Positions 31,369 through 63,902 of a DNA stretch of 64,000 nucleotides are shown one piece after another. Position 1 is the first letter of the stretch. Each line of letters starts with the position of its first letter. Source of the stretch: Haliotis rubra (taxonomy: Eukaryota); the NCBI RefSeq assembly GCF_003918875.1, contig NW_025767052.1, forward strand, positions 1-64,000. Reading direction: 5' to 3'. The position numbers and the translations under genes are program-made. The notes under the pieces were generated by a model. It worked only from the letters and a program-made list of their open reading frames with translations. It had not been told where the DNA came from and made no database searches.

Positions 31369-31812
31369 CGGCAGGCCTGTCAGCTATGTATACTAGTGTA
31401 TACTAATATGTTGGTATTTCAATTTGTCATTTATAGATGGACATAGAGTACTTGACTTAAATTCATGGCAAGTTACAATAATTTGCGTGAGGACCATTTT
31501 CTATACATGTACATATAAATACAGACATATACAGGATTGTAGTAGTACATACTGACAGTATTGATTATATAGCACGGTTACACAAAGTACAAATGATTAA
31601 TTTATAATGGACAATATTGTCAACATGATGTTGACTACCTTATTATAAATGAGAATGGACAAAAAAAACAACAACCCCAAACCAACAACAAACACATGGA
31701 TGTAGCCATTGGCTTCAATGATACCATATGAACACAACGATTATGAGCAGTATTTCCCGTATTTGTTAGTGCCATCCACGCATACCACTGCTATAGTGTG
31801 TAGTGACAACCT

Positions 31813-34230: not shown

Positions 34231-35209
34231 CCTGAGTAAAGATAAAGGTCATTTGGTAACCCACTGGTAAACTACTCTCCATCCATTCCAGTAATTATTT
34301 TATTATGACCTTGTGGTGAAATTCATTAAAAAAAAACCTCATTCAATAAGTATATTCTTAATGAACCATGGAACATTCAGACATCTGTCGGCTGTGCTGA
34401 TACACACGTTCTCCACATAATTATACCTACATAGCCCCAAGACGTCTTCTCACAATTACTTCAACAGTTCCCTCGGGTCGGCTGGCCCTTTTACTACTAC
34501 CGGGACTTGTGGGAGGGGAAATGATTGCTCTATCCTCCCGTCCCATGGGTATCGAGCACGCCTGTGGACCCGTCCGTGATCAAGAGACGGGTAGACGGTG
34601 GAATCCATCAGCCGCCCTATCGCGTAACGACAAACACCTGGGCCACAGACAGTGGCGTGATGGCTCTTTTGTCTGCGGGTTGTCCTGTGCCTGTTTCTGC
34701 ATAGTTGACACCTCACTCTACATCATTTCACAACTACTCACAAACACCTGGTGTCACTCCAGGGCCCACAGACAATGGCGTGATGGCTCTTTCGTCTGTG
34801 GGTTGTCCTGTACCTGTTTTTCCACAGTTGACACCAAATATCAGCACTGCACAGCCCTTCCATTCTTTAAGTCTTTCATACATGAGTAAACAAAAATAGT
34901 TTTAAAAAAACAACAACTCCAAAAAAACAAGGCATCTACACAGGTGATGACCGAACTATTGCATGTAACCTATTTTATGCGTGATGCATCATAAGTAGTA
35001 ACCCACTTCTAATGGGTTATCAATGTGGGTACCTCGAGGGTGTGATATGGAGAACTATCCGTTTGTTGATCACGCATTGTTTGTGTTGTAAGGAAGGACA
35101 ATCATGTGGTGTGTGATGTACTGATACCGACGAACAATGTAAAGAAAGCACATGTTGATTTCTGGTTTGTGGGACTGGGTCACATTATTTAATAACTAGG
35201 GAATTCTTG

Positions 35210-35392
35210 TTAGCGTTCTGTTATGCTCTTCAGTGTGCATCTTGCATAGTAGTCCTCAACAATAAATGTGGGTATTTGTGGCTGGGAAACCCACTGTGGG
35301 GTGGGGTAGCCCACATATTGTACCTTGAAGTGTTGAACGCCGCATATGCGTTTCGACGACAACACGTGTTCAATAACGGGTGTCTGGTCCAC
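35210..35392 (-). pseudogene. Chromodomain-like C-terminus of pol/integrase
   Basis: IEHVLSSKRICGVQHFKVQYVGYPTPQWVSQPQIP fits the chromo-fold pattern, at the expected position upstream of env. Confidence 0.6.
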
Positions 35393-35903
35393 AGAGTCAC
35401 TGACAGGTGAGATTTGGTTTGGGGTATTCCATCTCCTCTGTAGGACAGCGAGTGGAATATCATCCTCGGGGTCCCAACTGCTATTTATGGGAATGGGATT
35501 TGGCTCGTCTAGGCTTGTGTGGCTTCTTTGGGAACTGGTTGGGACATTGGTGGAGGCACTGTCGTGATGTAAATCAGCGTCGTTGTCTCCGTGGGGTTCA
35601 GTTTGGGTTGCGTCAAGTCAGTAGTAGTTTGGCTGTCAGTCAAAGATATGGATTGACTGTCTTTAACTGTTCAGATGAGGTATCTGTAAGTGGTCCCAAG
35701 TCAAAGTTCGGCTCAAGTGGCTCAAACATAGCAACAGGTGCGTTTGCTGGCAAGGTAATTGTAGAGTTGGTTGGGTTGAGTAACCTATAAGGGACCTGAG
35801 AGTCGACACATCTCACTACACAATGTATACCTATGACCTGATGAGTTTGGGTCAGAGTACAGTACAGAGTGGCTGCAGCATACCAGGGAAGCCTGTCGGG
35901 GTG

Positions 35904-36386
35904 TTAATTGGGATGTCTAATTGCAAAATACAGCTCTGATCGAGGAGGAATACAGGCATGTGTGGGACATCTGGCTAAGATATGATCTGCTGGCGGGATA
36001 AGGAATGGGGCTTCGGCTAAACCCTGGTAAAGACAGAGTTTGTTATTGGAATAGTCAACTGAAGCTGAATGTTGTTTGAGGAAGTCAAGGCCAACCAAGA
36101 TATCCTGTTGTAGATCTTCCACTACATAGAACTTATGGGATAGTTTTAGATTGGCAATGTGCACGACTAAATCAGCTGACCCAGGCACATTAAGCGTTAT
36201 ACCATCTGGACCAGCTAATTCAGCAGAACCACTGGGCGTAAGGGGGAATTTATCAGACCCCTTAAGATTGTTGGATTGGAGAACATTAACCTTAACGGTA
36301 AGTTCATTAATTGCTGACATTAGCTGATCAGATTTGGCGTCAGACAACCCAGATGTCGCATCTGAGATCTCAGCGCTCTCTATCAC
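35904..36386 (-). pseudogene. gag remnant fused to the C-terminal half of a retropepsin protease
   Basis: LAGPDG...FYVVEDLQQDILVGLDFLKQH; the catalytic DTG motif is missing. Confidence 0.7.
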
Positions 36387-36462
36387 TTGGTCTTATGAAG
36401 TATGGGGATGTGTAAGAATGAACTGGCGGATATGGGGCAAGGCATTACGGATTATGAGATCC

Positions 36463-36718
36463 TGTATATCCGCCTCAGTAAGTTGATGCTCTGGGGGATA
36501 TGACTCTAATCAGCACACAAGTCCGTCTTGGGGTCCACACGATTTATTCTGGTCTAGTTACAAGGGGTGGCTCTGAACTCGGGTTCACAATCATTTATAC
36601 CATCCATTAATTGACATAGCTGACATTCCTTGCCCGTATCCGGCTTTTCCCCCATTCCATCTTTGGTGTAGATCCCTGTGGTCAGTTTGTGTCTTTCGCC
36701 AGGGTTATGTCTCCCCCC
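36463..36718 (-). repeat. 5' LTR, truncated
   Basis: Matches 30928-31209 with a small deletion, then switches abruptly to Maverick TIR sequence. Confidence 0.85.
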
Positions 36719-36719
36719 T

Positions 36720-36824
36720 CAAACAGTCAGGGTAACGACGTGCGTGACATCATCGTCAAGCCCCGGGGCACACGTTACTCCACACCCGGGCGATAAGCGC
36801 CTGTACACCATTGTCAAAGCCTCG
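36720..36824. repeat. Remnant of the left Maverick TIR
   Basis: Reverse complement of 54664-54769 with about 2 mismatches; runs into the N gap. Confidence 0.8.
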
Positions 36825-37030
36825 NNNNNNNNNNNNNNNNNNNNNNNNNNNNNNNNNNNNNNNNNNNNNNNNNNNNNNNNNNNNNNNNNNNNNNNNNNNN
36901 NNNNNNNNNNNNNNNNNNNNNNNNNNNNNNNNNNNNNNNNNNNNNNNNNNNNNNNNNNNNNNNNNNNNNNNNNNNNNNNNNNNNNNNNNNNNNNNNNNNN
37001 NNNNNNNNNNNNNNNNNNNNNNNNNNNNNN
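36825..37030. other. Assembly gap
   Basis: Run of N. Confidence 1.
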
Positions 37031-37743
37031 CGAGCAGCTCATCCAACGCCCGTTTGTCTGAGTGCTCGCATCGGATGTTTTTGTGAAGCATTTGGAGCAC
37101 TTCTCACGGGTACCACCATCATCTCCTCTTCATCCCAGAGGTCGCTCTCTGGGACCTCCTTCCGTTTCTTGGACACCGAGGGATCGTGGGGCACCGTTTG
37201 GCGTAGTGTCCACTCCCCGCCCCAAACGCTCCAGGGTGTACGTACAGCGCATCTGGCGCTTCAGCTGGCGATGGTCCTGTCAGGTGTATGCGGCTGACGG
37301 CCCGAGCGCTTCAGGGGTCCTCGCGGGGTTGGTCATCACCCTGCCCCCTAGTGTGGGACAGTTTCTTCTATAATGTCCCTCCTTGTTGCACTCTGTACAG
37401 GGTTGGGGACACTGCATCCCCCAATGCCCGGAACCCCCGCACCTGTTCCCGCACACCGCCTTCGGGCAGTGCTCAAAAACATGGTCGGTCGACCCCGGAC
37501 AGGAACAGCAGTAGTGGTGTTCTCTTTAAATAAAACATTGGCAGCCATCTCTTTAAATAAAATGGTAGAGACAGGGAGTGAGAGCCTGTAAACGATGTGT
37601 TGTCGATCCACGAGCGAACAGCAAACACAGCTATTCTGTACTGGGCACGCGTGTTTATATACCCGTACACGACTACCCTGAAGAGGGAGGGTTGTCTCTT
37701 ACGTGATAGTCGGCAGACACCTAGATCGCCACCAGTTCACTAT

Positions 37744-38265: not shown

Positions 38266-38334
<69 letters not shown>
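38266..38334. repeat. (CTA)n microsatellite
   Basis: Perfect trinucleotide run. Confidence 0.98.
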
Positions 38335-40997
38335 ATAACATGGCACATGGAAACGTGAATGACACCCTCATAGCTCATCTGGGTAGCTTGGAAGGTACGT
38401 ACATATTACATCATTATTTTAAACTAGGTAGTCGTTATATCTCCCGATCTAATACATAATTTCGTTCTTTTCATTCATATATATTCACCCAATAGGGGTG
38501 GCTCAATCACTAAATGTCGATAACCTGTGCTTAGGCCGGGCTATTACTGTAGCCCTGTACCTTCTTAGACAAGCCGCGTTACCCCGGGATTTGACCAAGA
38601 AGGAACGCAGACAGTGATACACTGAGCGAGAAGCGTTCTTGAGGGATGCGAGAGGCATACAAACTGAAGCTACCGAACCTGTATGGAAAGTTGTCCAACA
38701 TGGGAGGTGTTTCAAGCATGTTTAAGGGACGAGGCGCGCTTGCACGTACACACTATTACACCCGGTAATGGTTCTTCTGTTTTGTACGCTCCGCATACCC
38801 CACCTGGCATGGTTGAACACATCCTGTGCATCGATATTTTCTGGTGGCCTGCTAACACCCTCCAAAGCGGTACAAATGGTCACTACGATTGTATAAATTC
38901 AGTAGCGGGTTTGTACGGCGGTAACAAGTTTGCAAGCAATGCCATAGGGGGTACAAAACGCACGACAGGCATGCGTGCACTAAAGAGTACGTGCACTAAA
39001 GAGTATGCATGCGGAAAATGTGGGCGTAAGGGTTAAAGCTGTCTTAACGATTTTTGGTGACGTTGGCGATCAATTGGATCTGCTCGGTCATCCTTGTCGA
39101 CAGTGTCGTGTGTTGCCTACCGTGTTTGTGGGCAGAAGAGCTTCTGGTGTCCCCAATGCCGGACCGACAGAAATGCGGACCACGAATGTCTCGAAGTCAA
39201 CAAAAACAAAGTGTGTCGTCGGTGTAAGAGTCTTTTTGGACCCTCTCACCGATGCCACATGTCTGTCGACGTCATCGAGGAGGAGGACCGTATAGACCAC
39301 GATCTCACCAAGTATATTTTTTACGATTTCGAATCCATGTGCGACGAAAACGGCAAACACATACCTAATCTATGCGCTCTCCAGCTCGGTTGCGGCAAGT
39401 GCATGGGTTCAGAGTCTGAATACTTGTGTGAGACATGCCCCTGGCGTGCCAAGAAGATAACCCAGTGCGTACCCCCGGATAATAAACGGGAAATAGTCAT
39501 AGACGGTCACCATACCGAGACACTCGTCGGTCAGTTTTTTTCTCACCTAGTGCTACCACTGCCTCCAAAAACACGGCCGAATACCACCGCGAACACCGCT
39601 GCGTCCCAAGAGGGGGATACGTCCGTTCAAAACTCTACCGCAGCTGATGACGACGACATCGATGACAAAGGTGGTAACCCAGCCATTGTGGTCGTGGATC
39701 ACTATGCTAAGGGTTATGAGAACCATTTCATTTTGAAATCGTTGTTAGAACATCTCACGCAAAAACCGGAGGTTATATTGACCGGGAGTAAAATTTTGAA
39801 CATGTCTGTCGGCAGACTTCTTTTCCGCGACTCCCACAACTATATCCCTGACGTTCTTAAGAAATTCTGTAAGACTTTTGGTTTGGAAGCCGGTGAAAAT
39901 GGATTTTTTCCTCATCTCTTTAATAAGGTTGGCGCCAACCAGACAGTTCTCCTGAACAATCTGCCCACCATACATTATAACGGTGTGGATAGCATGTCTT
40001 GGGGCGATCGCGAGACCTCCGTCTCGTGGTTTGAGGAAAACAAAGGGAAATCATTCAACATGCAGGTCGAACTTTTAAAGTATTGTTGGCAAGAAGTGGC
40101 CATCTTAAGACAGGGTTGCACGAAATTCATAAACATATCTCTGAACGACGTCAACACCTTTTACGAGTGCATCACTTACGAGTGCCCCACGCCTGTGTTG
40201 ACGTTTAGGCGAAAGTACCTGAGACCCGACACCATATCCATAATACCTCCCAGCGGGTACCAGAACAACCAGCCATGACAGTCGATTGGTTAGCATCTCT
40301 GGAACGAAACCAGGGCTTACGACTGGATCGTGAAGTGTCCTTCACCTGCTGTGCTGATGGCTACGACGACGACTACGACGACGACACCACAACCGCGCAG
40401 AGACCGCATACCTACAAGGTAGACGGTTACGATCCGGTCACTAAAGTAGCTTACGAATTCCTAGGGTGTTTCTGGCACGCGTGTACGACGTGTTTCCCGC
40501 GTAAGCGGAACACCAAAATGCACTACGGTTCAGGCACTACACTGGCAGACAGACACGACCACACCATGTATCGTTTAGGTCTTTTACGACAACACCCAGA
40601 AGTGTCTGCCATACAGGCTATATGGGAGTGTCAATACAGAGCCGGTAGAGTGTAAATACAGACGATCAGAGATCATGGGTGGGTATCTACACCACCGTAG
40701 AAGTGTGTAAAGCGGTTCGAGAACTGTGTTATGCAGTCAGACGTATTTTCTCTGCGTGGCACTTTTCTCAGTTCGAAGTTTACGACCCCAACACCGCTGG
40801 CACCACGGGATTGTTCGCCGGATACGTCGACAACTTCTACAAACTGAAACAAGAAGCTAGTGGCAAGTGTGACATGGAGGATAACCAGTGCAGTTTCGTC
40901 GAGGAAATTTTCCCAAAGGAGGGAGTTCGTATGGATCCCTCCAATATCAGATTCAACCCGGGTATGCGAGCAATCGCCAAGTTTATGTTGAACAGCC

Positions 40998-43505
40998 TGC
41001 TGCGAAACTGTCTTCATCATTTTCAGATTACACACATAAACTTAGTAACGCACTCTCTACTAAAGACAGTAAATTATTCTGGAGAACTGTGAAATGGAAA
41101 TCATCATTTGTAAATAATAATATTACACCATTTGACTGGATGAATCATTTCAAGAATGTTGTTCAGTCTTCCTATTGTTCAGCCGATGAAGAACACTTCT
41201 ATATTTTTGTCAATCATTTTGTTGATTCAATCAGTGATAGACTTATTGATTCATCTGTGGACAATGACTATTTGGATAAAGAAATATCCTACCAAGAAAT
41301 AGTTAATGCTATTCAAGAAATGCATAATGGAAAAGCACCAGGACTCAGTGGCATTCCAATTGATTTTTTTAAAACTGCACCTCATCATTGTATTGATTTA
41401 TTGAAATCTCTTTTTAATAGCATTTTGTCTACAGGTATTTATCCATCTCAGTGGACGTATGGAGTTATTAATCCTTTGTATAAGAAAGGTAAAACTGATT
41501 GCCCTTGGAATTATAGACCTATTACACTGCTTGAAGTAACTGGTAAAATATTTTGTAAAATTATCAACAACAGGTTAAACTCTTGGGCTGAAAGGGAAGA
41601 ATTCTTCGGTGACGAACAAGCTGGGTTCAGGTATGGTTTCCAAACACATGATAATATATTCATTCTTAATGCTATAATTGATTAATATCTTTCACTTTAC
41701 AAAGGGGGCGGTGGGGTAGCCTAGTGGTTAAAGCGTTGGCTCGTCACGCCGAAGACCCGGGTTCGATTCCCCACATGGGCACAATGTGTTAAGCCCATTT
41801 CTGGTGTCCCCTGCCGTGATATTGCTGGAATATTGCTAAAAGCGGCGTAAAACCAAACTCAGTCAGTCAGTCACTTTACAAAGGCCGCCTCTATTGTGCA
41901 TTTATTGACTTGAAGTCCGCTTTTGACTCAGTCGATAGGTGTGGTCTCCTTTACAAACTGTGGCTTGGCAATGTGAAAGGTAATACCTACAGGCTATTGA
42001 AAAATATGTACCAAAATGTTAAAGCTTGTGTGTCGATGAGAGATGGTTACACACCGTTTTTTGATTGTTTATCAGGAGTTCGTCAGGGATGCCAGTTGTC
42101 TCCCTTTCTCTTTTCCTTCTTTGTCAACGACATTGTTGATTGTCTATCTGCTGATGGTCAGAGGGGTATCATTTTAGACTTAGTTGAGCTGTTCAGCCTA
42201 TTGTTTGCTGATGATATTGCGCTTTTTGACTTCACAGTTATAGGTCTGCAAAAGAGGCTAGACAAGCTAGTTTCGTATTGTAACAAGTGGAAATTGAAAA
42301 TAAATCTTGATAAAAGTAAAGTTATTGTATTCAGGAAGGCTGGTCGTCTAAGACATTACGAAAAGTTCCATTTGAATGGACAGTTGCTTGAAATTGTTGC
42401 ATCATATGAATACTTGGGTGTTCACTTCTGTTCCTCTGGATCATGGTATGTTACACAGAAAATTTGGCTGACCAAGCATAGAAGGTGTTGAATACTTTCA
42501 AATCATCGGTTAAGAATTTTTATAATCTACCAATTAATGTTCTGCTCCATATATTTGATGTCAAGGTTTTGCCATTGTAACTATACGGAAGTGAAGTCTG
42601 GGGTTTCCTCCCGTCGCCATCTGTATTGAATGTACACGATAGGTTCTGTAAACAGGTTTTGGGTCTTTCAAGATACACGCCAAATATTGCAGCTCGTGCT
42701 GAGATTGGTCGTCATTCATTAAAGGTAAATCAGTACATTAAGATTGTTAAATATTGGGTTCGCCTCCTGTCTCAAGTTGAGAATGTAATCTTAAATAAGG
42801 TTTATGAGTATCAGTATTGTCTTGCTGAAAAAGGTATAGATTGTTGGGCTTTTAAGGTGAAATCTCTTTTGTACAGTTATGGTTTTGGCAATGTGTGGGC
42901 CAGTCAAAGTGTTGGAAATATCTCTACTTTCATATCATTATTTAAGCAAAGATGTATTGATATAGATAACCAGTTGTGGGCATCTCGTATTATACTTGTT
43001 TCGAATTTGGATTTTTATCGCAGGCTCAAAGAAGGTGTAGCTTTTGACTTCTATATCGATAGTGTTAGTGTAAAACAGTTTCGAATCTTCTTAAGTAGAT
43101 TTCGTTGCTCAAACCACAATTTGATGATAGAGTACGGTAGACATTTAGATCTTAAAAGGGAGGATCGCCTGTGCCCGCTTTGTATCATACCTAACATAGA
43201 AAATGAATATCACTTTTGCCTGGAATGCCCTTTTTATGGGAAATTAAGAAATGATATCCTCCCTACATATTATCACATATATCCATCTGAAGTGAAATTA
43301 GCCCAGTTGTTTACAACAAAGAATACTATATCATAAATTGTCTTGCAAAAACGAAATAAATTTCTTTCAGCCTTCGTACCCACAATTGTATAATTGTGCA
43401 GCTCTCATGATGTTGTACGGTGCTCTAATAATTGTATATTCTGTACACCTAATGTATAATGGGCCTGTGGCCCCTTTCCTGAATAAAACAAAAACTCTCT
43501 CTCTC
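40998..43505 (+). mobile_element. 5'-truncated LINE inserted into pPolB motif B
   Basis: RT motifs NYRPITL, QAGFR, GVRQGCQLSP, LFADD; C-terminal CxxC...EYHF..C; aataaa plus (ct)n tail. 12-bp TSD tgttgaacagcc at 40986-40997 and 43506-43517. Confidence 0.95.
41706..41870 (+). mobile_element. tRNA-derived SINE nested in the LINE
   Basis: A/B boxes; 14-bp TSD tcactttacaaagg at 41692-41705 and 41871-41884. Confidence 0.95.
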
Positions 43506-45232
43506 TGTTGAACAGCCACTGGGGCAAATTTGGTCAGTCTAATGACAAGACCCAGTGTCGGTACATCACAAACGAGCGCGATTTCTACGACCTCATTCAC
43601 GACAGGTGCATAGATATGAAAGATGTCATTTTGGCCAGCCCCGACACTCTACTCGTCACCTTCGCCCCCACTGAAGCACACTGAGTTCCACACACCGCCA
43701 GCAATCCCGTCACAGCCGCGTGGGTCATGGCGCAAGCTGAGCTAAAACTGTACGAAGCCTTGGAGTGCCTAGGTGATGCCGTGTTGTACTTTGACATGGA
43801 TTTGGTGATTTACATAGAGAAGAAGAGCGAGCCTCGACCTTTGAAACTTGGTGATTCTCTAGGCGAGTGGACTGACGAGATAAAAGAGGGCAATTGGATC
43901 GACGAATTTGTGACCTGTGGACCGAAAAATTATGCGTATCAACTACGTCATCGACCGCGTAAAGGGCCTCAGGAAGTTTGTAAGATCAGAGGTTTTACCT
44001 TAAATTATCACTCTTTTGAATTTCCAGGCCCTGGTCAACACAGCTCTCCAGGCCCCAGACGCTCGTACGAAAATTCGCGTCACGTGTCCTCATTTTCTCA
44101 AGAGGTTGGGTCTAGAGTGAGAGTTGGACGTACACACCGTGAGTCAATCAAAATACGGCTTTTGCTACAGCAAGCGTCGCATCATCCCCGAACCCGTAAC
44201 CTCTGAGTTGACCTACACGGTACCCTACGGCTACGACACCAGCCCCACGTGATTCGTCGATCGCACTCAACCAGTTAATAGCCCGGCATCCCGCCAAGCT
44301 GCACTCTCTCCTTTTGAGAGCCACACCCCCCCCCCCCCTCCCACACACACACACACACAAACGAGTCATGACACGCTCGACGTATACTTTACTTTACTAT
44401 CTATCGTCATGTCTCAACAGCTGAACGACGGGTTGTATAAGGATGACGACATGTTCCAAATCAGCTATGCCCTCACTAACGCCCTGTCACACGTGATGGT
44501 AGCCCTCCGTCACAGCATGGGCTCCTCCAAACTGACCCCGCAACCCCAACAACATCAACATCACCAACACCCGCGAAAAAGAGACGCCTCAACCCCGACA
44601 GACTGACCCAACATCTTCAACAACGGAGAACCCTCATCAACCACCACCACCAACAACAACAACAACAACAACCATGACAACGCCCACCAACACCGGCACA
44701 AAAACCCTGCCACTACCACCACCACCACCACCACCACGACCACGGCCAACCACGCCGCACACCCAAACTCGAAACGACCGGCACTCACGTGCCAAACGAA
44801 GAAGACAAACGGCGGCATACCGACAGTCGCCAATGACAGCAAGAAGAAGAAACCGAAGAACCAAAAGACAGCGCCCTCTTTTTCTTCTTCTACAAAGATA
44901 GGTATCCAAGAACGCCAAGAACTAGGAGAAGAAACAACTGTCGAACTCGATGCTGAATTACAGGGGCTCGTCACCGAGCTGATAGGGGGGTAGCGACGAG
45001 TGAAAACGCACCCAGGCATACAAATGAAATAAACGAACGGATCGTGTGGTCCGTTGAAATGTAAAACCCAGTATTCGGTTGTTATTTTCGTACGTCTCTC
45101 TCTCTCTCTCTTTCACACCGAAAAAAAAAAGACAACAAACGAACAATAAACAAACAAGCAGGCATAAATTCATTATAAAAGCATCACGCTTCTGCTTTAC
45201 AGAAGCACTTTTATAAGTTTATTTATACGCGA

Positions 45233-46044: not shown

Positions 46045-47130
46045 ATGAACACTGCACATGAAGACGGTAGTAGTAGTAGTAGCAGTAGCAGCTATGACGA
46101 CTATTCTCCGACGTCTCCAGACGGATATACCGACGACTCTAGTATGGACGATACCAGTGACGATGCAACGACGACGTCCACCAGTTCTTCATCTTCTCTG
46201 TCGGCATCGTCTTTGGTTAAAGAGACAACCCGCATACCTTATTCCGCCACCGTGTGTAGAAAAGATCAACTGTGGCAGGCTTACTTGTCAGACGTGTCAC
46301 GTATCAGTAAAGTCAACGATGGTTACAAATTCATATTATTCATGATTGACGTGTTCATCAGATACGCATTTGCCGAACCGCTCAAAGATAAAAAAGCTAA
46401 AACGGTGACCAATGGTTTCAAAAGGATCTTGGCCCAGGCTAAGCCTCGTATGTTTCTTAGCTTAATGACCGATAAAGGTAGGGAATTTGTCAACAGTAAT
46501 TTTAGACATCAGGTTGAGAAGGTTCTGAGGAAATCGTTTTATACCAGTCAAAACGACGACATGAAAACCCTAAAGACGAGAACAGAGAACCCTAAAGACG
46601 CGTTTATGGAGATATTTTACCACGATATCTCAACCTCGGTACGTGGAGGTGTTGCCTAAAATATTGAAAGCTTACAATAACGCGTACCACACTACCACCG
46701 GGCGTAAGCCTAGCGAAGTGATTACTATCCGTAATGAGCTAGGGGTGTGGGATCACAACAGCCACCGACAAAATACTCTGGATGCAAAACATTATATTCT
46801 TCTAAACGCGAGCAATACCTACTGCCAGAAACACCCGTGAGGATCTCTAAGAGAAAAGGGAATTTCGATAAAGGGTACGAGGCCAACTGGACCAGAGAAA
46901 TATTTTACATGGTCAACAAAGTTAAACATCGGAGACCGTCAGCCTATAAAATTCGCGACTACAATAGAAACGCTATAAAAGGAACATTTTTTGGGGACGA
47001 GTTACAAGTCGTATCAGAGCTGGAGGCCTACGAAGTAGATAGCGTAGTGAAGAGAAGGGTCAATAAGGCTAAGCTAAAACTGAACTGTTAATTCGATGGA
47101 AGTGATACCCGGCCAAAGAATTCGACCAAT
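46045..47130 (+). pseudogene. Maverick retroviral-like (rve) integrase with a C-terminal chromo-like region, frameshifted
   Basis: LWQA.LSD, IDVFIRYAFAEPLKDK, TDKGREF, AYNNAYHTTTGRKP, FDKGYEANWTREIF, YKIRD...IKGTF...ELQ. Confidence 0.9.
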
Positions 47131-47437
47131 GGCTACCAGAAAGTCACGTGGTAAGGAAATCCTCAAAAAGGGCTTGATGTGTATGAGGAAGCTACCACTA
47201 AACACCATTCTGTTATGCATACTGGTCGTATGCTTCTTGTGTCTGAAAGGTACTACGCCGTTCGATCTAGCCGAGGATATAAAGAAGGTGGAAGAACAGT
47301 TGTTTGAATTACTAAAAATATCGCTATCTATGCGCACGGTTCATACCTCTCCCGGTATGTTAAGAAGTCGTAACAGCAACAGCCCTCATTTGTTCCTGTC
47401 ACCGAACATCAGTTTATGGGAGAACAAAACTATACAT

Positions 47438-47730
47438 ATGAGTAATGGTGTGAAACCGTCAGATTTTTACCTTACCCTACCTAGCGATGCCAGCCCAGAA
47501 ACACGACCGGATAATGTACAGCACACGTACACCGTAGATTAACCGTACCCTCTGAAGGTAGACAGAAAGAATAATTGGAGAGTGGGCGTTAGTACTGTAC
47601 AGATACCCGTGACATGGCACAATTTACCCGCTCCACATAATACTTTCAGCGTGTATATCACTGTGCCCGTGTGTTGTAGAGAGGGGGGTATAGCAGAAAA
47701 TGACATCATCGAACACCTGGCTGACCTCAT
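47438..47730 (+). pseudogene. Maverick minor capsid (penton) N-terminal fragment
   Basis: DFYLTLPSDAS....PDN....YTVD*PYPL...WRVGVSTVQIPVTWHN; one in-frame stop at 47540. Confidence 0.7.
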
Positions 47731-47991
47731 TTCACAGGGGTGTCAATGACCTTGTACTGAGCTGACCTTGGGATAAACAACATTCCCAGAGGTATTTTTA
47801 TATCAGGTGCATAGCAACGGAAAATGAAAAAGATATCTAGGAATATGGATAGATCAACTGGTTTAATCCAGTTTGGAAATGAAAATATATAAACCCCTTC
47901 TTTTTAGATCATGCATCACTTCATCCCTGACTACACAGACGACATCCAGCTATACAACTCTCTCTCTCTCTGTTGGCTGTTTATCTTGAAG

Positions 47992-48624
47992 ATGGAAGCC
48001 GTTCACCGTGATATCCTGAGGAAGAATCACTCCGGTCTAGTGCAAGCTATAAAGCACGTAGAAGAGGTGGTGGACAAGCTGATGCAGTCTAAAGTCCTTA
48101 CCATCTTCATGAAGGCAGAGATTATCGAAAAACCTCCAACCTCCTTTGACCTTGTCAGAGCTTTATTAGATACCCTTCCCCAGCGGGGACCAGAAGCCTA
48201 CTCCCTCTTCTGTAAAGCTTTGGAGGAATGCGGAGAGATACAGGCCATGGCATTGTTGGGACTGGAGACAGACAGGACAGAGTATCCTCATGGTCATGAA
48301 GATCTAGGTGGGTACCTATGTATGGACAGTATTCCTCTCAGACCTCGAACACAGTTCCAAGAACGGCTGAATTCCTCTCAGTCTTGGCCTGTGCAGATGA
48401 AACAGAGTCCTAGTCAAATGGCCCAGGCTGGATTTGTGTACTTAATCAGAGGGGACGCTTGCAAGTGTGTTCAATGTGGTGTTGTTCTCAAGAACTGGGA
48501 CGTAGAGGATGATCCTTGGGGCGAACATGAAAAATGGTCTCCAAACTGTCCGTATTTGGCCCTGGTAGGAGTACCTCAGAAAGAGGTGGTCCGCTGGGGT
48601 AGTCATGTAGATTTACATGTGTAA
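47992..48624 (+). CDS. Intronless CARD-BIR protein (IAP-like), 210 aa, within the Maverick
   Basis: CARD MEAVHRDILRKNHSGLV...LLDTLPQRGPEAYSLFCKAL; BIR RLNS..SWP...MAQAGFVY with intact Cx2Cx16Hx6C. TATA at about 47886, AATAAA at about 48673. Confidence 0.88.
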   Translation: MEAVHRDILRKNHSGLVQAIKHVEEVVDKLMQSKVLTIFMKAEIIEKPPTSFDLVRALLDTLPQRGPEAYSLFCKALEECGEIQAMALLGLETDRTEYPHGHEDLGGYLCMDSIPLRPRTQFQERLNSSQSWPVQMKQSPSQMAQAGFVYLIRGDACKCVQCGVVLKNWDVEDDPWGEHEKWSPNCPYLALVGVPQKEVVRWGSHVDLHV

Positions 48625-48744
48625 GAGTGTGATGTTCATTGTACAATACTGTGTGTATTTGTGACTATTTGAGAATAAATCAATATTGGTTGTCATTAGT
48701 TAATGTGGTGTATAAAAGTCCTAACGAAAGGTAGGTGAAGGGAG

Positions 48745-48816
48745 AGCAGTGGAACACAGTGGAAGCGCACTGGGCTCATAACCCAGAGGACCGTGGATCG
48801 AAACCACGCTTTGCTA
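48745..48816 (+). tRNA. tRNA-iMet(CAT)-like gene, D-arm degenerate
   Basis: 72 nt, A1:U72 pair, anticodon arm CTGGG-CTCATAA-CCCAG, T-arm CGTGG-ATCGAAA-CCACG with the initiator-type loop. Confidence 0.75.
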
Positions 48817-48840
48817 ACAACATGTGTTTAGGAGTTAGAA

Positions 48841-48960
48841 TTAGGGCTAGCAGACATCTATATACAGGACAGAAACGGTGATTTAGATTCATTTAGCCGT
48901 GGACCCGTGATAGTGACACTTCATCTGAAACCTCTGTGTGAGAGTCAGTTTTCATTCTGA
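48841..48960 (+). pseudogene. Penton C-terminal fragment
   Basis: DIYIQDRNGDLDSFSRGPVIVTLHLK resembles the Maverick penton end motif IxIxDxxG...F..G...VTLHF. Confidence 0.55.
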
Positions 48961-48969
48961 ATCAGAAAA

Positions 48970-49266
48970 TGAACAAGAGACCCTTTTTTGACGACCCTAA
49001 GAAATGGACCAAATATTACTAATTTGCAGGCTAAAGGATATCCCAATCCCTGTACTAACGTGGATGATTATGTGATCTATGACGAGAAGCAAGGCGTCAA
49101 GATGGACCTACCCCCTTCTTCTGAAGAGACTTTTGCACTCACTTCTCCCACCCAACAAGTGGTTCAACAGGCTAAAGCCAAGTTGAAGAGAGAAAGGGAA
49201 AGTGTCGTCAATAGGGGAAACACAATGGAAGCAGTGTCAACAAATCGAATGAAAACATATTTTTAA
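48970..49266 (+). CDS. Small Maverick-type hypothetical protein
   Basis: LTSPTQQVVQQAKAKLKRE motif; located between the penton fragment and the ATPase. Confidence 0.4.
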
Positions 49267-49326
49267 ATAGAGACAAAAGGCTAAATGTGTCATTTTTAGT
49301 AGGACTGTTGACGTGTAAACATCATT

Positions 49327-50112
49327 ATGCATCCCTGTCCTGTATGCACCAAACAATATGTTTGGGCTCATGACTTGTCCCGTCATATTCGAACAAAACA
49401 TTCAGAAGATATCAAGCAGCAGCAGCAACAGCAACAGCAGCAGCAACCAGTGCAACCACATTCATCAGAAAGTACTACCTAGTCATTGGAAGAATTTAGG
49501 CTTCTACACCCCTTTACCATGATCGTCTCAGGGCCCATCTCCTGTGGGAAAACCTACTTAGTGAAACAGCTTTTAGAACGGATGAACATTAAACCTTATC
49601 CTGAACGTATTATTTGGCTCAACAAACGATGGCAGCCCTTGTATAACACCATTCAAACCCATGTTTATCCCTATGTGGAATTTCATCAAGGCATTCCTTC
49701 TGATCTCGAAAAGGATCAGTTTCTGGACCCCCATGTGGTGAATGTGGCTATCCTCGACGACTTAATGTCGACAGCGAGCAAAGATCCATGCATTACAGAT
49801 CCATTTACGGAAGGAAGTCATCATCCTAATCTCTCAGTGATAGCCTTGAACCAGAATTTGCATTTTAGTAAGGATCCCACACAACGAAGAAACTGTCATT
49901 ATCTGCTTCTGTTCAACAACCCTATCGATCAACAACCCATCATCAGGCAAATGTATCCAGGTAACACAGACCATTTCATGGAGCCGTTTCAAAGGGCTAT
50001 CCAGAAACCATATGGCTACGTGTTGGTTGACCTAAAACCCCAAACACCTCCCCATTTACGACTTTGTCCCAATGCATTCAGTTTAAAAGGAGACCTCCAT
50101 GAAAGGAACGAG
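49327..50112 (+). pseudogene. Second packaging ATPase with N-terminal C2H2 zinc finger and polyQ
   Basis: CPVC...HIRTKH and polyQ, in-frame TAG at 49480, then HPFTMIVSGPISCGKT (Walker A), ILDDLM (Walker B), EGSHH.NLSVI, PYGYVLVDLK. Truncated by a Tc1. Confidence 0.85.
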
Positions 50113-50806
50113 TTCAGGGGTGAGCACCTGGTCGCGGTAAGCAGCAGCTGTGAGGTTTCCACGGATGACCAGAAGTCGGGAACGGTTGTTCCCACAGAAA
50201 GCACCCCACGTCGAGAATGGAGATTGGCAGCGTGCAGAATGGTCTGTGAGGACAGTCGACCTCTAAACATCTCAGCCCTGGTTCGTGTAGCCGGCAGAAA
50301 TCTGTCACGTAGGTGACGTAGGACGATTTGACGGTCTTCTGTTCGTGACGTCACACGTGGACGACCCGACCTTGGGCGATCAGAAGTGGTGCCAGTTTGT
50401 TGTAGACGACCTCGCAAGTCATACACAGTACGACGGCTGCATCCAATTGCTCTTGCGACGTCAATAACTGATCTTCCCGCTTGCAACATGCCAACGGCAC
50501 GTTCACGTTGCACATTTGACAATCGTGGCATTTCAAGTACCGTTAGAACTGTGGTTTGAAAGTGTTTTTTCAATTCTTGAAGCCAATGCAAACACGTGCA
50601 TATGAAGAAAACTTCGATGCGAAGATCACGTGATCGACTGCACGTGCAAAACCTGATTTGGCACTAGCGTCATTTGCACGACGAACTGATGGGTTTGAGT
50701 GGGTTTTGCTAACGTTTTTCTTCGGATACATAGATGTATCATCAGAAAACAATTATTCATTATTTTTCAGATTACATTTTGTGAAGTTTCTTTTTTGACT
50801 CAGTAT
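50113..50806 (-). mobile_element. Tc1/mariner 5' fragment
   Basis: MPRLSNVQRERAVGMLQAG...RSGRPRVT (from 50531); terminus ...ttttttgactcagtata. Confidence 0.85.
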
Positions 50807-54222: not shown

Positions 54223-54540
54223 GTTGTTAACAAAAGAGGCACCCGGAGATTACACATACACGAATCATACGGTATAGATTACATGCGAATTTGGGTCGAA
54301 TTTCACGAATTTGTGTCAAAATATGGTCGTTTGCAATATACCTACAATAGAGTTCGCGTGCAGAGCCTATCGTCTATAGCTTGCGGACACCATTGCCTAT
54401 ATTTCAGTAGCTGTCGTTCTAGGGGTATTTCCTAAGACGAGATAGTGAAACATTACAGTCAAAAGAACACGCTTAAGAATGATTCGATGGTTTTCAGATG
54501 GTATGACGACAGCGTGAAACGTATGCTCGAAAAATTCTAA
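54220..54540 (+). pseudogene. Maverick adenain-like cysteine protease, C-terminal fragment
   Basis: HESYG...YNRVRVQSLSSIACGHHCLYF carries the Q-x5-CG-x-HC catalytic motif. Confidence 0.75.
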
Positions 54541-54663: not shown

Positions 54664-55932
54664 CGAGGCTTTGACAATGGTGTACAGGTGCTTATCGCCC
54701 GGGTGTGGAGTAACGTGTGCCCCGGGGCTTGACGATGATGTCACGCACGTCGTTACCCTTACTGTTTGACCCCCCCCAGATATGTCAGGCTCGATGTCAG
54801 TTAGAACCAGACAGCCGGAGAGTGAGGTTGTATATTTTTGAGTGTCAAGGGGTCAATTGTCCGATTGCTATGATGATGATACCGACGCGAGGAAGCCAGT
54901 GACTTTATCGGACTATGTATACGAAGACGGTGTAACTCTGGATGGTAAATATCATCTTCAACGTGGGTACGACACCTGTGGGAAACAACCATCGATAGTG
55001 CATAGAAAGCTACTGGTCGATTTAAGCCAGAACTACTGCCACGAAACGATGTTATGTGGCTACGACAGGATGGCTACTTTTAAGGACTGTCCCGAACAGC
55101 TGGTTCAGCCTGGTGGGGATTACGATTGTGGAAATGGTGCGCCCAGGATGACATTGACTTTGAACATAACTGGTTTAGCCCATCGTGCTCATTCCTGAAA
55201 ATTACGTGTCCCTTTAAATTCGACAGTGATATGAGGACGCATACTATCGTATGACGGTAAATTATTGTATATCTACTCCTCGTCGTATTGCTTAAAATGT
55301 GTATATTCTCGTCGTTGTTGTATTGGTTAAAAATGTGTATAGAATATATTCTCGTCGCTGTTGTATTGCTTAAAAAAATGTGTATATGAACATATGTTTG
55401 ATGGTGTCCAGATTTGCGAATAAAATGTATGAAATGTATGAATGTCTATGTTGTATTTTACGTGTTGCTTCGTACGGCCTAGTAGAGACCTCGGGAGTAC
55501 ACGATTTGTTTGGTAGACTTATAGCTTTACACACACACACACACAGAGCAGGGTCAGCGCATGACCGCCACCGTGACGTCATGCTGGACGCTTTGTGCTG
55601 GACGCTTTGTCATTGGGAGGGGTGGCATGACCACCACCGTGACACCTTGAGTGGACGTTTTTCTCCTACGTCATAAGGCGCATGACAGACACTGTGACGT
55701 CAGGCGCTTTTCCTACGTCGTAAGTCGGACACCGCCATCGTGACGTCAGGCGCTTTTCCTACGTCATATGGCGGTCACCGTTATCGTGACGTCATGGTGG
55801 TTGTGAGTCAGGGCGTTTTCGACGCCATAGGGCGGTCATCACATGACCGCCTCTGTGACGTCATGGTGTTGGGCCAGCGCTTTCCCGAGGGCATATTACG
55901 TCACCTCGTAAAAGCGCTGGCCCCATACTACT
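54664..55932. repeat. Right terminal inverted repeat of the Maverick (at least 1.27 kb if it is all TIR)
   Basis: Inner part matches the left remnant; ends in the canonical ACTACT. Host duplicated sequence resumes right after. Confidence 0.7.
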
Positions 55933-57428: not shown

Positions 57429-59721
57429 TCAACACCTGCCACGTGTGAGCTTGTGTTACTGTGTTGCAGTGTGACGTTACGTCCCTGCGAGGGGTGACGT
57501 TACGTCTCGAACGATGTGTTTAGGCTGTGCATGCCGTTCAAATTTTCATTAACAATCATGAGCTGTGCTATACCATACCATTCCGCTTCTAACCTCAAAC
57601 AAAAAGCGCAACTAAAACGTTTTCCTGAATGCCTGTATACCACTACACAAACACCTGAGAAATTGTCTGTGAAATCATTTGTGAAAATTATACTGTCCTA
57701 GTCTTGTATTCTGAACCTCAGATGCTGTCTTCATAAAAACAGGAAGCAAAATTGGGAATAGCCTGCGACTTCGCTGTATCGCGGTACTTGACATATCCGT
57801 AATCGTAAATAAAATTAAAAACTTTAAGGCCTATTTTATTATTAAATCCGATTACCATCACATTTAATCAACACATTTGTGAAAAGAATATTATTTTAAC
57901 TTTGATAGTGTTTCAGCGAGAGCCATTAACGAACGAAGCCGGTTAATATTTACCAAAGGATAGAACTACATCGTATCGCGGTAAACACTAAAACTCGGAT
58001 TGCAAGGCGAAGTAGGGAACAAAAAATGAAATAGTTTAACTCACCTTAATATGAAATCAGTTGAGATATTATTTGCAATCGAAGGTGCACAAAACTGTGA
58101 AATTTTATTCAAAGAAATCACCAAACTTCCAAAATATATCATTTTCATCATGATTTTCATAATATTTGTTCATACTGTTTATTTTTATAATTTCAGGCAT
58201 GATTTCAACAATATTTCAATGCAAAAAATTCTTTGAAATAATGTGAATAAATAATTGAACAACAGTATAATAAAATCCTTTCTAAATTTCTATTTTGTTA
58301 GAGTGTGCAAAATCGTTTTCAGTGAACAGGGATCATTTTTACGTTTTGTGTCCTTTTTTGAATTACAACTTTTGGTATTCTGCAGGAATTTGGGGCCTGG
58401 TGTAGTGCTTCCTCAACCGGTTACCTACAGCAACGCCATCAAGAACTGGTTCAATACTTGTTCTCCAGTGGTTAGTATAGCCCACAGCAACTAATGCCTG
58501 ACGTAAGAGACGACCGTATGTATCGGGTCTGAGGAACGGTGACGTTCAGATAGCTCCTTGACAACGTGGGTCGTTGCTCACAGAAGCAACCACTGGATTA
58601 TGTGGAAAGTGCTAGAGTGTGGCGGTGGAGAACTTACAATTTATCAATACAAATATTCAACAGAAGCCGCATACCATTATTGGCAAAAAGATAAGAAAAT
58701 GTTCAAAAAATATGTTTTTCATCACTATTTATTCACGTTTCTATTAACGGTTTGTATTACACTAAATGGATACAGTGCAGCCGTGGGTGCTCATTAGAGA
58801 AACAAATCGAACAGTTTACAAAATATGTAAGTACATTAGTGCTTGAGTATCCTTAAATAGATGCCACAGACTGTGTTAAAAGAGAAACAAATACCACCAA
58901 TAGCATGACTGGGTAGTCAAATCAAATCATATTAAGTCAAACCAAGAAAAAAACCCGGTAAAAAGTTAGTTACATTAAACACGTAAAACGGCAAATAATC
59001 TATCTTTAGACTACAAAGTGTTGATCCAAACATACATAATTTAATCTATTGTCAAACAATAAAGCAATAAAAATCCCATGAGTGATCAAACTAGAAGTCA
59101 ACCTGTGATACGGACTGAATGACCTGGCACAATGGTGACAAAATGTGTTGGTTTTGTACACCTTCTAACTGTTCTGACACATTTCATAAGTTGTAGAAAT
59201 ATGACAGATACTATCTTTAGATAGCCAATAGCCTACATATAGCCCAGTTAAATACCTAAACAACACTTTACATAGTCCAAAGCACAGTCACCTGGTTCTA
59301 AAAAAAATCATGACATGAAAACTGAACCAACTGAAAATTATCTTTACCTGATACCTGTGAGTGTTATTTTAGCCAATCTGGAGGCTGTCAAGTCTAATTA
59401 CCATTGAACGGTTTATACATAGAGCAAACAATATCGTTTCCTCTTAACTTACTTCTCATATACCGTCTAATGATTTCTGATCATGTACTAATAACCTAAC
59501 GTCTCAGAAACCACAATAAAATGTACCCAAACTACACGAATGGATATTAAAAGAATCAGAACGAGACAACTAGATATAACACCGTGACCATATGAATTGA
59601 ATCGATGAAAATAAGAATCGATTCACAATAATAAAAGAGGGAATTTGTTTACATCAAATGCTGTGACACGTGAACACAGCATAAGACTGTCGTATGTGTG
59701 ACAAAACATTTCAACCCCATG

Positions 59722-62030
59722 TTTTAAAGAGATATTGGACATAAAACCAGCAATAACAATGTCAGCTGAGCAACATCAAGCTTTAAAGAGATATTGGACA
59801 TAAAACCAGCAATAACAATGTCAGCTGAGCAACATCAAGCTTTAAAGAGATATTGGACATAAAACCAGCAATAACAATGTCAGCTGAGCAACATCAAGCT
59901 TTAAAGAGATATTGGACATAAAACCAGCAATAACAATGTCAGCTGAGCAACATCAAGCTTTAAAGATATATGGACATAAAACCAGCAATAACAATGTCAG
60001 CTGAGCAACATCAAGTTTTAAAGAGATATTGGACATAAAACCAGCAATAACAATGTCAGCTGAGCAACATCAAGCTTTAAAGAGATATTGGACATAAAAC
60101 CAGCAATAACAATGTCAGCTGAGCAACATCAAGTTTTAAAGAGATATTGGACACCATAAAGCACCAGCAATATCAATGTCAGATATTGGACATAAAACTG
60201 CAATAACAATGTCAGCAAACATCATTTAAGCTTTTTAAAGAGATATTGGACATAAAACCAGCAATAACAATGTCAGCTGAGCAACATCAAGCTTTAAAGA
60301 GATATTGGACATAAAACCAGCAATAACAATGTCAGCTGAGCAACATCAAGCTTTAAAGAGATATTGGACATAAAACCAGCAATAACAATGTGAGCAACAT
60401 CAGCTCAGCAACATCATACTTTAAAGAGATATTGGACATAAAACCAGCAATAACAATGTCAGCTGAGCAACATCAAGTTTTAAAGAGATATTGGACATAA
60501 AACCAGCAATAACAATGTCAGCTGAGCAACATCCTGTATGTTAAAGAGATATTGGACATAAAACAGCAAAATTCTCAGCTCAGCTAGAACAAGCTTTAAA
60601 GAGATAACATAAAACCAGACAACTGCAATGTCAGCTGAGCAACATCAAGCTTTAAAAGAGATATTGGACATAAAACCAGCAATAACAATGTCAGCTGAGC
60701 AACATCAAGCTTTAAAGAGATATTGGACATAAAACCAGCAATAACAATGTCAGCTGAGCAACATCAAGCTTTAAAGAGATATTGGACATAAAACCAGCAA
60801 TAACAATGTCAGCTGAGCAACATCAAGCTTTAAAGAGATATTGGACATAAAACCAGCAATAACAATGTCAGCTGAGCAACATCAAGCTTTAAAGAGATAT
60901 TGGACATAAAACCAGCAATAACAATGTCAGCTGAGCAACATCAAGCTTTAAAGAGATATTGGACATAAAACCAGCAATAACAATGTCAGCTGAGCAACAT
61001 CAAGCTTTTAAAGAGATATTGGACATAAAACCAGCAATAACAATGTCAGCTGAGCAACATCAAGCTTTAAAGAGATATTGGACATAAAACCAGCAATAAC
61101 AATGTCTGCTGAGCAACATCAAGCTTTAAAAAGATATTGGACATAAAACCAGCAATAACAATGTCAGCTGAGCAACATCAGGTTTTAAAGAGATATTGGA
61201 CATAAAACCAGCAATAACAATGTCAGCTGAGCAACATCAAGCTTTAAAAAGATATTGGACATAAAACCAGCAATAACAATGTCAGCTGAGCAACATCAAG
61301 CTTTAAAAAGATATTGGACATAAAACCAGCAATAACAATGTCAGCTGAGCAACATCAAGCTTTAAAGAGATATTGGACATAAAACCAGCAATAACAATGT
61401 CAGCTGAGCAACATCAAGCTTTAAAGAGATATTGGACATAAAACCAGCAATAACAATGTCAGCTGAGCAACATCAAGTTTTAAAGAGATATTGGACATAA
61501 AACCAGCAATAACAATGTCAGCTGAGCAACATCAAGCTTTAAACAATGAGATATTGGACATAAAACCAGCAATAACAATGTCAGCTGAGCAAAGATCAAG
61601 CTTTAAAGAGATATTTTAAAGGACATAAAACCAGCAATAACAATGTCAGCTCAGCAACATCAAGTTTTAAAGAGATATTGGACATAAAACCAGCAATAAC
61701 AATGTCAGCTGAGCAACATCAAGCTTTAAAGAGATATTGGACATAAAACCAGCAATAACAATGTCAGCTGAGCAACATCAAGTTTTAAAGAGATATTGGA
61801 CATAAAACCAGCAATAACAATGTCAGCTGAGCAACATCAAGCTTTAAAGAGATATTGGACATAAAACCAGCAATAACAATGTCAGCTGAGCAACATCAAG
61901 CTTTAAAGAGATATTGGACATAAAACAAGCAATAACAATGTCTGCTGAGCAACATCAAGCTTTAAAAAGATATTGAACATAAAACCAGCAATAACAATGT
62001 CAGCTGAGCAACATTAAGTTTTAAAGAGAT
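59722..62030. repeat. 59-bp satellite/minisatellite, about 39 copies
   Basis: Unit ctttaaagagatattggacataaaaccagcaataacaatgtcagctgagcaacatcaag. Confidence 0.98.
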
Positions 62031-62786: not shown

Positions 62787-63474
62787 TCACTGTACTTGTA
62801 ACAGTCGGCGAAAGGGATCCACGTCCATTCTTTCTATTTGTCGAGCCATGTCCCAGATATCGTCTTTCACCACTGAAGGGGGACGCCTTTTATTTTGCAC
62901 ATTTTCTGAAATGAACTCGTATAAATTCATTTTATCCATTGGGATTTCCTGCCCGTTGATGTTGAAAACCATCTTTGAAGCGGACTTTGCGGATTGTCCG
63001 AGAGATATCATCATATCTGATATCTGTACTGGCTTGACTTTCAGACGTTCCACAACTGCGCTTTCCACCAATTCTTTCATGACATCATCTTGCTTCTTCA
63101 GGATAGAAATATTTCTCTCCAGTAACTCCACTGCTCTGATGTACGCCTCCAAGCTCTCTTGTGCACCTTGTCTTACTTGACTTTTCTTAATTGACAACAA
63201 GAATGCAGCAATGAGCGCTACTACAGAAGCAGCACCCAGGCCCGCAGTAGCAGCTCCAAAGGCGAGGGATGCTCCAAACGTGAAGGGAGCGGCAATCAAT
63301 GCAGCCGTGCCAAGAGCAGCCCCTCCAACCATAGCTCCGTTCAGGAGTTTCCCAATTTTTTCCACCTCTTCAGCTACGTCTTTAAGCCCTTTAACAGACT
63401 GGTGCTGTACGATCTCTTCGTTGCGTGAACTGTCCAAAAGCTCCTCCACAAGTTCACAGGCGAACTGTTTCTTT
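62787..63474 (-). CDS. Gene B paralogue, last exon: ApoL-like domain; upstream exons not found in the window
   Basis: Colinear with 7959-7293, about two-thirds identical by eye; same tatcctcag| acceptor; open to the stop codon. Confidence 0.8.
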
Positions 63475-63674
63475 CTGAGGATAGAAAACATATTTCACCT
63501 TTCAGATCATGTAAAAACTATGTTCAGATATTTAGATATGAAGTCTCCAATCTCTTCATAACAAGACATGATCACATAAGTAGCCAGTGGTTAAGTTAAA
63601 TTGGTACGTCATATGGGAGTATATTACTACACAGTTAAGAGTCACAAAGAAAACGCCCATTGAGCTCAACATTT

Positions 63675-63760
63675 TAGTAGTAGTAGTGAGGAGGAGTAGC
63701 AGTAGTAGTAGTAGTAGTAGTAGTAGAAGTAGTAGTAGTAGCAGTGGCAGTGGCAGTGGC

Positions 63761-63798
<38 letters not shown>

Positions 63799-63860
63799 CA
63801 GTGGCAGTGGAATTAGCAGTAGCAGTAGGAGTAGTAGTAGTAGTAATAGTAGTAGTAGTA

Positions 63861-63901
<41 letters not shown>
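63675..63901. repeat. (AGT)n-rich microsatellite
   Basis: Imperfect trinucleotide run. Confidence 0.97.

Positions 63902-63902
<1 letters not shown>

Follow-up and report, generated by a model that had tools for sequence, protein, structure and literature searches.

A 64,000-nucleotide stretch of Haliotis rubra DNA (assembly GCF_003918875.1, contig NW_025767052.1, positions 1 to 64,000; hereafter the window) carries, within a decayed Maverick element, an intronless gene whose product joins an N-terminal CARD to a single BIR domain. We consider it reasonably likely that this gene was accessory anti-death cargo of an abalone Maverick lineage, in which the CARD would dock on a platform, and that the copy in the window is now a fossil. 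How animal Mavericks, which have been argued to be viruses, deal with host defence is little known. The carriage of IAP genes by Mavericks has been published; what is new is a minimal CARD-BIR protein with a CARD-PC4 sister family, an arrangement that is apparently undescribed.

A CARD-BIR gene in a decayed Maverick element

The coordinates of the gene and of the element that surrounds it are collected in Table 1. When the frame was searched against Pfam minus its first Met, the CARD (E 9e-15) and the BIR (E 1e-21) were both recovered above the cut-off, and no RING was found in the frame. All four zinc ligands are present in the BIR, which places the protein among the IAPs (BIR proteins). Type II BIRs follow the rule E/Q76, H77, W/H80 and C84 (PMC8917759, available sections); the corresponding residues in the window are E178, H179, W182 and C186, and they are the same in the H. 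asinina relative P0005. A 237-residue version that begins at the in-frame ATG at 47911 was considered and rejected, because this codon lies only ~20 nt 3' of the TATA box, at the expected start of transcription. An earlier sequence-only reading of this DNA had described an intronless 210-residue ORF with an N-terminal CARD, one BIR with all of its zinc ligands, its own TATA and AATAAA signals and no RING, and the ORF, the Pfam matches, the ligand positions and both signals bear this description out.

Table 1. Position of the CARD-BIR gene and of recognisable parts of the surrounding element in the window.
Feature	Position	Strand	Remarks
Protein-primed PolB, broken; LINE inside at about 41000-43510	38490..44250	+	DNA_pol_B_2 E 2e-9
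First ATPase-like ORF, without P-loop	45280..45954	+	31% identical to second
Retroviral-type integrase, broken	46045..47150	+	Pfam rve E 6e-7, under cut-off
Probable minor capsid gene start, one stop, then cut off	47441..47700	+	named from motifs; no Pfam match
TATA box, TATATAA	47886..47892	+	consensus match only
CARD-BIR ORF, 210 aa, intronless, no RING	47992..48624	+	ATG 47992, stop 48622-48624
CARD, aa 1-93	47992..48270	+	same family as abalone CARD-PC4 CARD, 70-87% identical
Flexible linker	48271..48363	+	first part weakly like PC4 domain start of CARD-PC4
Type II BIR, aa 125-189	48364..48558	+	ligands C159, C162, H179, C186
AATAAA	48674..48679	+	50 nt 3' of stop; consensus match only
tRNA-Met-like copy, CAT anticodon, partly decayed	48745..48816	+	Rfam 42.7 bits; ARAGORN 0 genes
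Small ORF with a frameshift, present in several copies in other runs	48970..49266	+	taken to be a Maverick gene; no Pfam match
C2H2 zinc finger and packaging ATPase, one stop; Tc1-like insert at about 50100-50800	49328..50100	+	Adeno_IVa2 E 2e-5, above cut-off
Probable adenain-like protease end, one stop, front replaced by LINE	54271..54537	+	named from a motif; no library match
Probable second BIR gene, broken, halves in two frames	54870..55254	+	Pfam BIR E 0.014, below cut-off; local profile iE 0.002
Element right end: short repeats closing in ACTACT (55927-55932)	55552..55932	.

The element has a protein-primed PolB, a retroviral-type integrase and a packaging ATPase, assignments that rest on Pfam, and the earlier statement that the recognisable core Maverick genes nearby are broken held for all three. 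The remaining assignments come from motif likeness, as the fragments at 47441-47700, 54271-54537 and 48970-49266 have no match in the domain libraries: we take the first to be the probable start of a minor capsid gene (contigs of other runs break off before 47704), the second to be a probable protease, and the third to be a Maverick gene. No major capsid ORF was recognised in the element, which is deleted internally. Mavericks, or Polintons, end in terminal inverted repeats with the termini (AGT)2//(ACT)2 and are flanked by a 6-bp target duplication (PMC8097293, available sections). The window contains no left terminal arm that could partner the ACTACT end, so the target duplication is not readable. 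By the features given in the available sections of PMC8097293, the surrounding element is a deleted and decayed Maverick.

Several further observations concern this element. The two packaging-type ATPases are divergent and may belong to one element or to two nested ones, and ahead of the second stand its C2H2 zinc finger and a run of glutamines. A small ORF with a hydrophobic stretch (47186-47400, no Pfam match) lies between the integrase and the minor capsid gene. The tRNA-Met-like copy, presumably of the initiator type by its features, stands directly 3' of CARD-BIR, and in contigs from other runs it likewise neighbours the CARD or the BIR. An ACT run (38266-38334) is situated close to the element's left edge, and minus-strand ORF pieces at 37030-37500 have zinc-knuckle-like motifs. 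A 106-nt inverted match (36719-36824 and 54664-54769, 98% identical) has one arm that abuts an assembly gap; its reading as terminal repeats was rejected, as the element continues past it.

Predicted fold of the CARD-BIR protein

AlphaFold, supplied with a 20-row alignment, predicts two folded domains (mean pLDDT 81.6) that are joined by a linker in which residues 96-116 score below 50; prediction from the single sequence gave a pLDDT of 36. The modelled CARD superimposes on the caspase-9 CARD with a Z of 15.7 (rmsd 1.7, 91 aligned), on Apaf-1 with a Z of 15.5 and on an MDA5/MAVS entry with a Z of 14.6, and its matches to the MDA5/MAVS, RIG-I and NOD1 CARDs differ from the caspase-9 match by no more than about 1-2 Z. 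When CARDs are ranked by profile, those of Dronc and RAIDD come first and the CARD-only protein in PDB 6j52 is near-tied. The latter is also the best single-sequence match of the window CARD (E 6e-5), and the NOD1 CARD is among its best sequence matches. The modelled BIR resembles BIR3 of cIAP1 (Z 14.4, rmsd 1.6, 83 aligned) and, by Foldseek, BIR2 of XIAP (rmsd 1.1). Atlas searches returned leads only, all below 0.9.

The CARD-BIR fusion recurs in other copies

All seven matches in the first search for relatives are named Haliotis proteins, which are 68-87% identical to the window protein. Two proteins annotated 'caspase-2-like', P0001 from H. rubra and P0003 from H. asinina, consist of the CARD and the same linker followed by a BIR that is out of frame, as their tails match the window BIR at 10 of 13 residues each in two different shifted frames. 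Programmed frameshifting as the source of such short CARD-only models was rejected for this same reason. The H. asinina model P0005 joins the start of the CARD to a BIR (87%) and to a zinc finger (70%), and this zinc finger is the one located 700 nt downstream in the window. P0001, P0003 and P0005 are all broken or spliced models. A search of 1.84 billion representatives yielded 7248 matches, and among the 150 listed only P0044, which is without the last zinc ligand, spans both domains. Its cluster contains P0170, a protein from an ENA contig that is a whole 208-residue CARD-BIR and is 47% identical to the window protein; with the window copy, this brings the known whole open versions to two. 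Identity between them is 50/92 in the CARD, 7/29 in the linker and 34/70 in the BIR. P0170 keeps the four zinc ligands, and its BIR is graded as type II-like only, as it has a Leu at position 80, where type II BIRs have W/H. That both domains, but not the linker, are conserved at 47% identity suggests selection in the lineage. We assume that P0170 lies in a Maverick context.

Assembled contigs from four of 17 listed runs were also surveyed, of which 32 pieces out of about 2870 were shown. In three DNA-type runs from three organisms, divergent contigs cover 30 of the 30 bins of the region 47400-49400. At least three of the 32 pieces shown bridge the CARD and the BIR (X9 records 24 and 26; X11 record 12), and none of them spans the whole 47400-49400 stretch. 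One contig joins the end of the BIR to the tRNA, the short side being 30 letters, and another, from X11, joins 47823 to 48598 and skips the CARD-BIR gene. A presumed RNA run gave six partial contigs, one of which bridges the CARD end and the BIR in unlike flanks, and it is uninformative on a transcript either way. The nine best-supported differences between the window ORF and the contigs (from 40 of 459 rows) comprise six replacements and three silent changes. Scans of viral contigs with CARD-BIR, the ATPase, CARD-PC4 and PolB found no locus, and the one locus that a metagenome scan yielded, from 59 candidates, is that of an unrelated IAP with several BIRs and a RING.

As the fusion recurs in H. 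rubra, H. asinina and an ENA contig, CARD-BIR is family cargo rather than a one-off. The earlier proposal that the gene is Maverick-borne is strengthened by the zinc finger neighbour in P0005 and by the many divergent copies.

The CARD is shared with a CARD-PC4 family

In H. rubra and H. asinina, this CARD also stands at the head of the CARD-PC4 proteins, a multi-copy family on which our literature search found no paper. Relatives that contain PC4 only occur in Gigantopelta and in contigs. Members of the CARD-PC4 family (P0002, P0004, P0008, P0009, P0011 and P0171-P0176) are annotated 'uncharacterized' or 'caspase-2-like', and the accession numbers of several from H. asinina are adjacent on one contig, which suggests a tandem array. 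Among 8000 scored candidates, the CARD profile found 11 matches in longer proteins, all of them from the family (ten of the CARD-PC4 type and one CARD-BIR), and no host donor of the CARD appeared in this set, in a search that was limited by word crowding. We infer that CARD-PC4 also lies in Mavericks; the sole link is one contig in which tRNA-like sequence precedes, by ~190 nt, a CARD whose continuation is unlike the BIR linker.

Separate phylogenies of the two domains, which the sequence-only reading had recommended, gave a divided answer. In a tree of the best 70 of 494 BIR domains (71 columns), the BIRs of the four fusions fall into one clade with support of 98/83, in which the BIR of P0170 is sister to that of the window, a grouping that is favoured by the choice of domains with a profile seeded on these two proteins. 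A clade of fusion CARDs was rejected by the AU test (p 0.018 for 5 of 14 rows and 0.027 for 3 of 14 rows), in which the groups were set by architecture and tested after the first tree had been seen. Identities among the CARDs follow the same pattern: the CARD of P0003 is 91-92% identical to H. asinina CARD-PC4, with which it has a 2-residue gap in common, and that of the window stands at 86-88% identity to both CARD-PC4 and CARD-BIR of H. rubra. As there is one BIR clade but no CARD clade, the CARD appears to have been shuffled between two partners, and the simplest reading of these sequences is that the two cargo genes have likely exchanged it repeatedly within each lineage. A likeness between the window linker and the beginning of the PC4 domain was seen in two of five validly placed comparisons with CARD-PC4 (shuffle p 0.003 and 0.005; the others ~0.3).

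Proposed function and alternative explanations

It is established that CARDs bind one another and that type II BIRs bind newly exposed N-termini, both those of processed caspases and those of IAP antagonists (PMC13159474 and PMC8917759, available sections); a CARD-only protein of an iridovirus blocks apoptosis (PMC4457926, available sections). By analogy to viral IAPs and viral CARD-only proteins, an anti-death role may be proposed for CARD-BIR. The CARD would dock as a decoy on a host CARD activation platform, as has been reported for the iridovirus protein, and would hold the groove of the BIR beside a processed caspase, so that the BIR could cap the caspase or soak up antagonists. As it has no RING, such a tethered inhibitor would act by binding alone, with no ubiquitination. 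We infer that the gene was under selection while the element was active. The sequence-only reading had offered a viral counter-defence gene as one of two options, and this option is plausible for Maverick cargo whose fusion is present in other copies.

The other option, that the copy in the window was domesticated and is kept by abalone selection as an anti-death gene, seems very improbable. No other recognisable gene of the element has escaped both breakage and large loss, and the copy retains its TATA box, AATAAA, zinc ligands and groove residues. However, 17 stops and frameshifts, counted by eye and without an intact reference, occur in the 2212 codons of seven core genes, a rate that predicts 1.6 breaks per 210 codons and leaves a frame of this length unbroken with a probability of 0.20 (95% range 0.08-0.39), or 0.11 once six insertions and deletions are added. 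Thus, unlike the domain assignments, which lie far beyond chance, the open frame does not. Open runs of 405, 224 and 206 codons persist in the dead core genes, the longest in the dead polymerase, and the closest annotated relatives in two species are broken. Both domains of the window copy also show wear: CARD residues 33, 54 and 64 depart from columns that are at least 90% conserved among 18 other family CARDs, which the two closest broken copies nowhere do, and the BIR has a serine at residue 129, a position that is aromatic in 98% of 488 other BIRs. Given the probability of 0.20, the open runs in dead genes and the copy-specific replacements, the open frame is no evidence for domestication. 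The description of the gene as intact is correct for its frame and zinc ligands and overstated for these four positions, and the accompanying caveat that a short ORF may survive by chance is the better reading: the frame probably stayed open by chance, and the window copy is probably a fossil that is no longer under selection. That the gene is the retrocopy of an ordinary host gene, inserted into this one element, had been named as an outcome that would overturn the cargo reading and is extremely improbable. CARD-BIR is intronless, and intronless mollusc IAPs are usually read as retrocopies (PMC7831173 and PMC8917759, available sections), but the CARD profile uncovered no parent among the 8000 candidates scored, the window BIR has 51% identity to that of the nearest named host IAP of H. 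asinina, which is not its sister in the tree, and the fusion has many copies and the same Maverick neighbour in H. asinina.

Two further explanations were weighed. Deletion or recombination may have joined the front of a CARD-PC4 gene to a BIR-only cargo gene, producing a chimera that spread passively with the element while only its two parents were selected. The partial likeness of the linker to the PC4 start fits such a by-product, as do the scatter of the fusion CARDs in the tree, a Met at residue 111 of the ORF that could be the old start of a BIR-only gene, and the fact that whole members are far commoner in CARD-PC4 than in CARD-BIR. We nevertheless judge it unlikely, as P0170 is a whole fusion at 47% identity with a different linker, domains that are more conserved than that linker and a sister BIR, and as the junction is common to two named species and the window. 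Alternatively, the gene may be Maverick cargo that targets innate antiviral or inflammatory CARD signalling (a RIG-I-like receptor, MAVS or an NLR) and not the apoptotic caspases, a reading that we regard as decidedly unlikely. The closeness of the MDA5/MAVS, RIG-I and NOD1 CARD folds to the caspase-9 match is in its favour, as are the NOD1 CARD among the best sequence matches and the fusion of the same CARD to a PC4-type domain, for which we know of no role in caspase control. Against these points, the CARD is joined here to a type II BIR that has the groove residues for binding caspases and antagonists, and the family profile places the Dronc and RAIDD CARDs first.

Comparison with known systems

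Adintoviruses carry homologues of IAP and Bcl2 (Starrett et al. 2021, PMC8502044, available sections), and the gene in the window resembles the IAP genes of adintoviruses and Mavericks in being an intronless BIR gene amid PolB, integrase, ATPase and capsid genes. It differs in its architecture, as the available part of that report speaks only of 'IAP', whereas here a single RING-less BIR is headed by a CARD that is common with a PC4 fusion; the accessible text of its supplement does not mention CARD, PC4 or Haliotis, and its figures could show more. The accessible text of a coral polintovirus paper (PMC11131425) likewise does not mention apoptosis, CARD, PC4 or tRNA. The viral IAPs of baculovirus, iridovirus (193R), oyster and abalone herpesviruses and an abalone asfa-like virus share the BIR fold (E 8e-6 to 6e-3 in a library of viral structures), but structural matches to viral IAPs cover one domain (TMq about 0.3), and none of the best 50 rows listed covers both the CARD and the BIR. 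Viral CARD decoys, such as the grouper iridovirus CARD (PMC4457926, available sections) and PDB 6j52, are also virus-borne CARDs; they consist of the CARD alone, whereas the abalone CARD bears a BIR or PC4, and the match to 6j52 is too weak to argue for a common origin. A CARD-targeted, RING-less IAP would be a compact viral death-blocker design that is absent from both viral IAPs and CARD decoys.

Among cellular proteins, cIAP1 and cIAP2 (BIRC2/3) likewise combine a type II BIR and a CARD in one chain. They contain three BIRs, a UBA, a CARD and a RING in this order, with the CARD restraining the RING (PMC13159474, available sections), whereas the window protein has its CARD first, one BIR and neither UBA nor RING, and so falls outside this type. 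In a survey of 2843 IAPs that included two Haliotis species, 58 entries contain a CARD, and outside vertebrates these come only from Lingula and Mercenaria (PMC13159474, available sections). Lingula LOC106155253 also places its CARD ahead of the BIRs but is a CARD-NACHT-3BIR-UBA-RING protein with 8-10 exons (exon numbers from the available sections of PMC13159474); this model (P0179) is possibly an annotation fusion. Mercenaria LOC123539234 has a CARD, one or two BIRs and no RING, and is encoded by 9-10 exons; the comparison is by content, as the order is not given in the available sections of the same survey. The earlier claim that CARD-before-BIR is an unusual order therefore stands as to rarity and not as to uniqueness, because the Lingula model has it. 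We did not find the minimal CARD-BIR order in print, in a literature search without most subscription papers.

IAPs of the G3 type, in which a BIR is joined to PC4, have been reported from hard clam and mussels and interpreted as an innovation of the host (Song et al. 2021, PMC7831173, available sections). These proteins have two of the three modules considered here (CARD, BIR and PC4), the PC4 being likened by name, and the accessible text makes no mention of 'Maverick'. PC4 terms are absent from the supplement of PMC13159474, and no protein with both BIR and PC4 was found among the 192 proteins that we checked. Taken with the published BIR-PC4 type, the CARD-PC4 sister family suggests a three-module shuffle. 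In one hard-clam clade, 42 of 49 members are intronless single-BIR IAPs, and DNA transposons are enriched near IAPs, which has been read as retroposition (PMC7831173, available sections); in the same clam, Mavericks are the largest class of DNA transposon in the published table (PMC8905726, available sections). H. rufescens has several one-exon, one-BIR models of 143-172 residues (PMC13159474, available sections). Our results bear on whether intronless single-BIR IAPs of molluscs are retrocopies or Maverick cargo. Tentatively, we suggest as a possibility that abalone Mavericks run a modular anti-defence kit, in which one captured CARD, kept alike by recombination, would deliver either a caspase-blocking BIR or a nucleic-acid-binding PC4-type domain to host CARD platforms, and that many 'retroposed' intronless single-BIR and BIR-PC4 IAPs of molluscs may be Maverick cargo. 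Part of the growth of IAP families in molluscs would then have been driven by virus-like elements and not by retroposition.

Other features of the window

Two intronless ApoL-like paralogues lie on the minus strand at 7296-7979 and 62790-63494, 55 kb apart; they are 69% identical and both are open, and the ApoL-like match of the latter (E 1e-5) is just under the cut-off. If these ORFs are the two putative host death effectors between which the CARD-BIR gene had been said to sit, they are 14 and 40 kb off, outside the element, with other transposons between, and we found no ties between them and the CARD-BIR gene. An LTR element on the minus strand (30928-36718) has LTR pieces that are 96-99% identical, a fragment of an aspartyl protease, and broken ORFs that we take to resemble an envelope gene. 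The window also contains a 59-nt tandem array (59560-62000) and an AGT-rich repeat (63665-63950).
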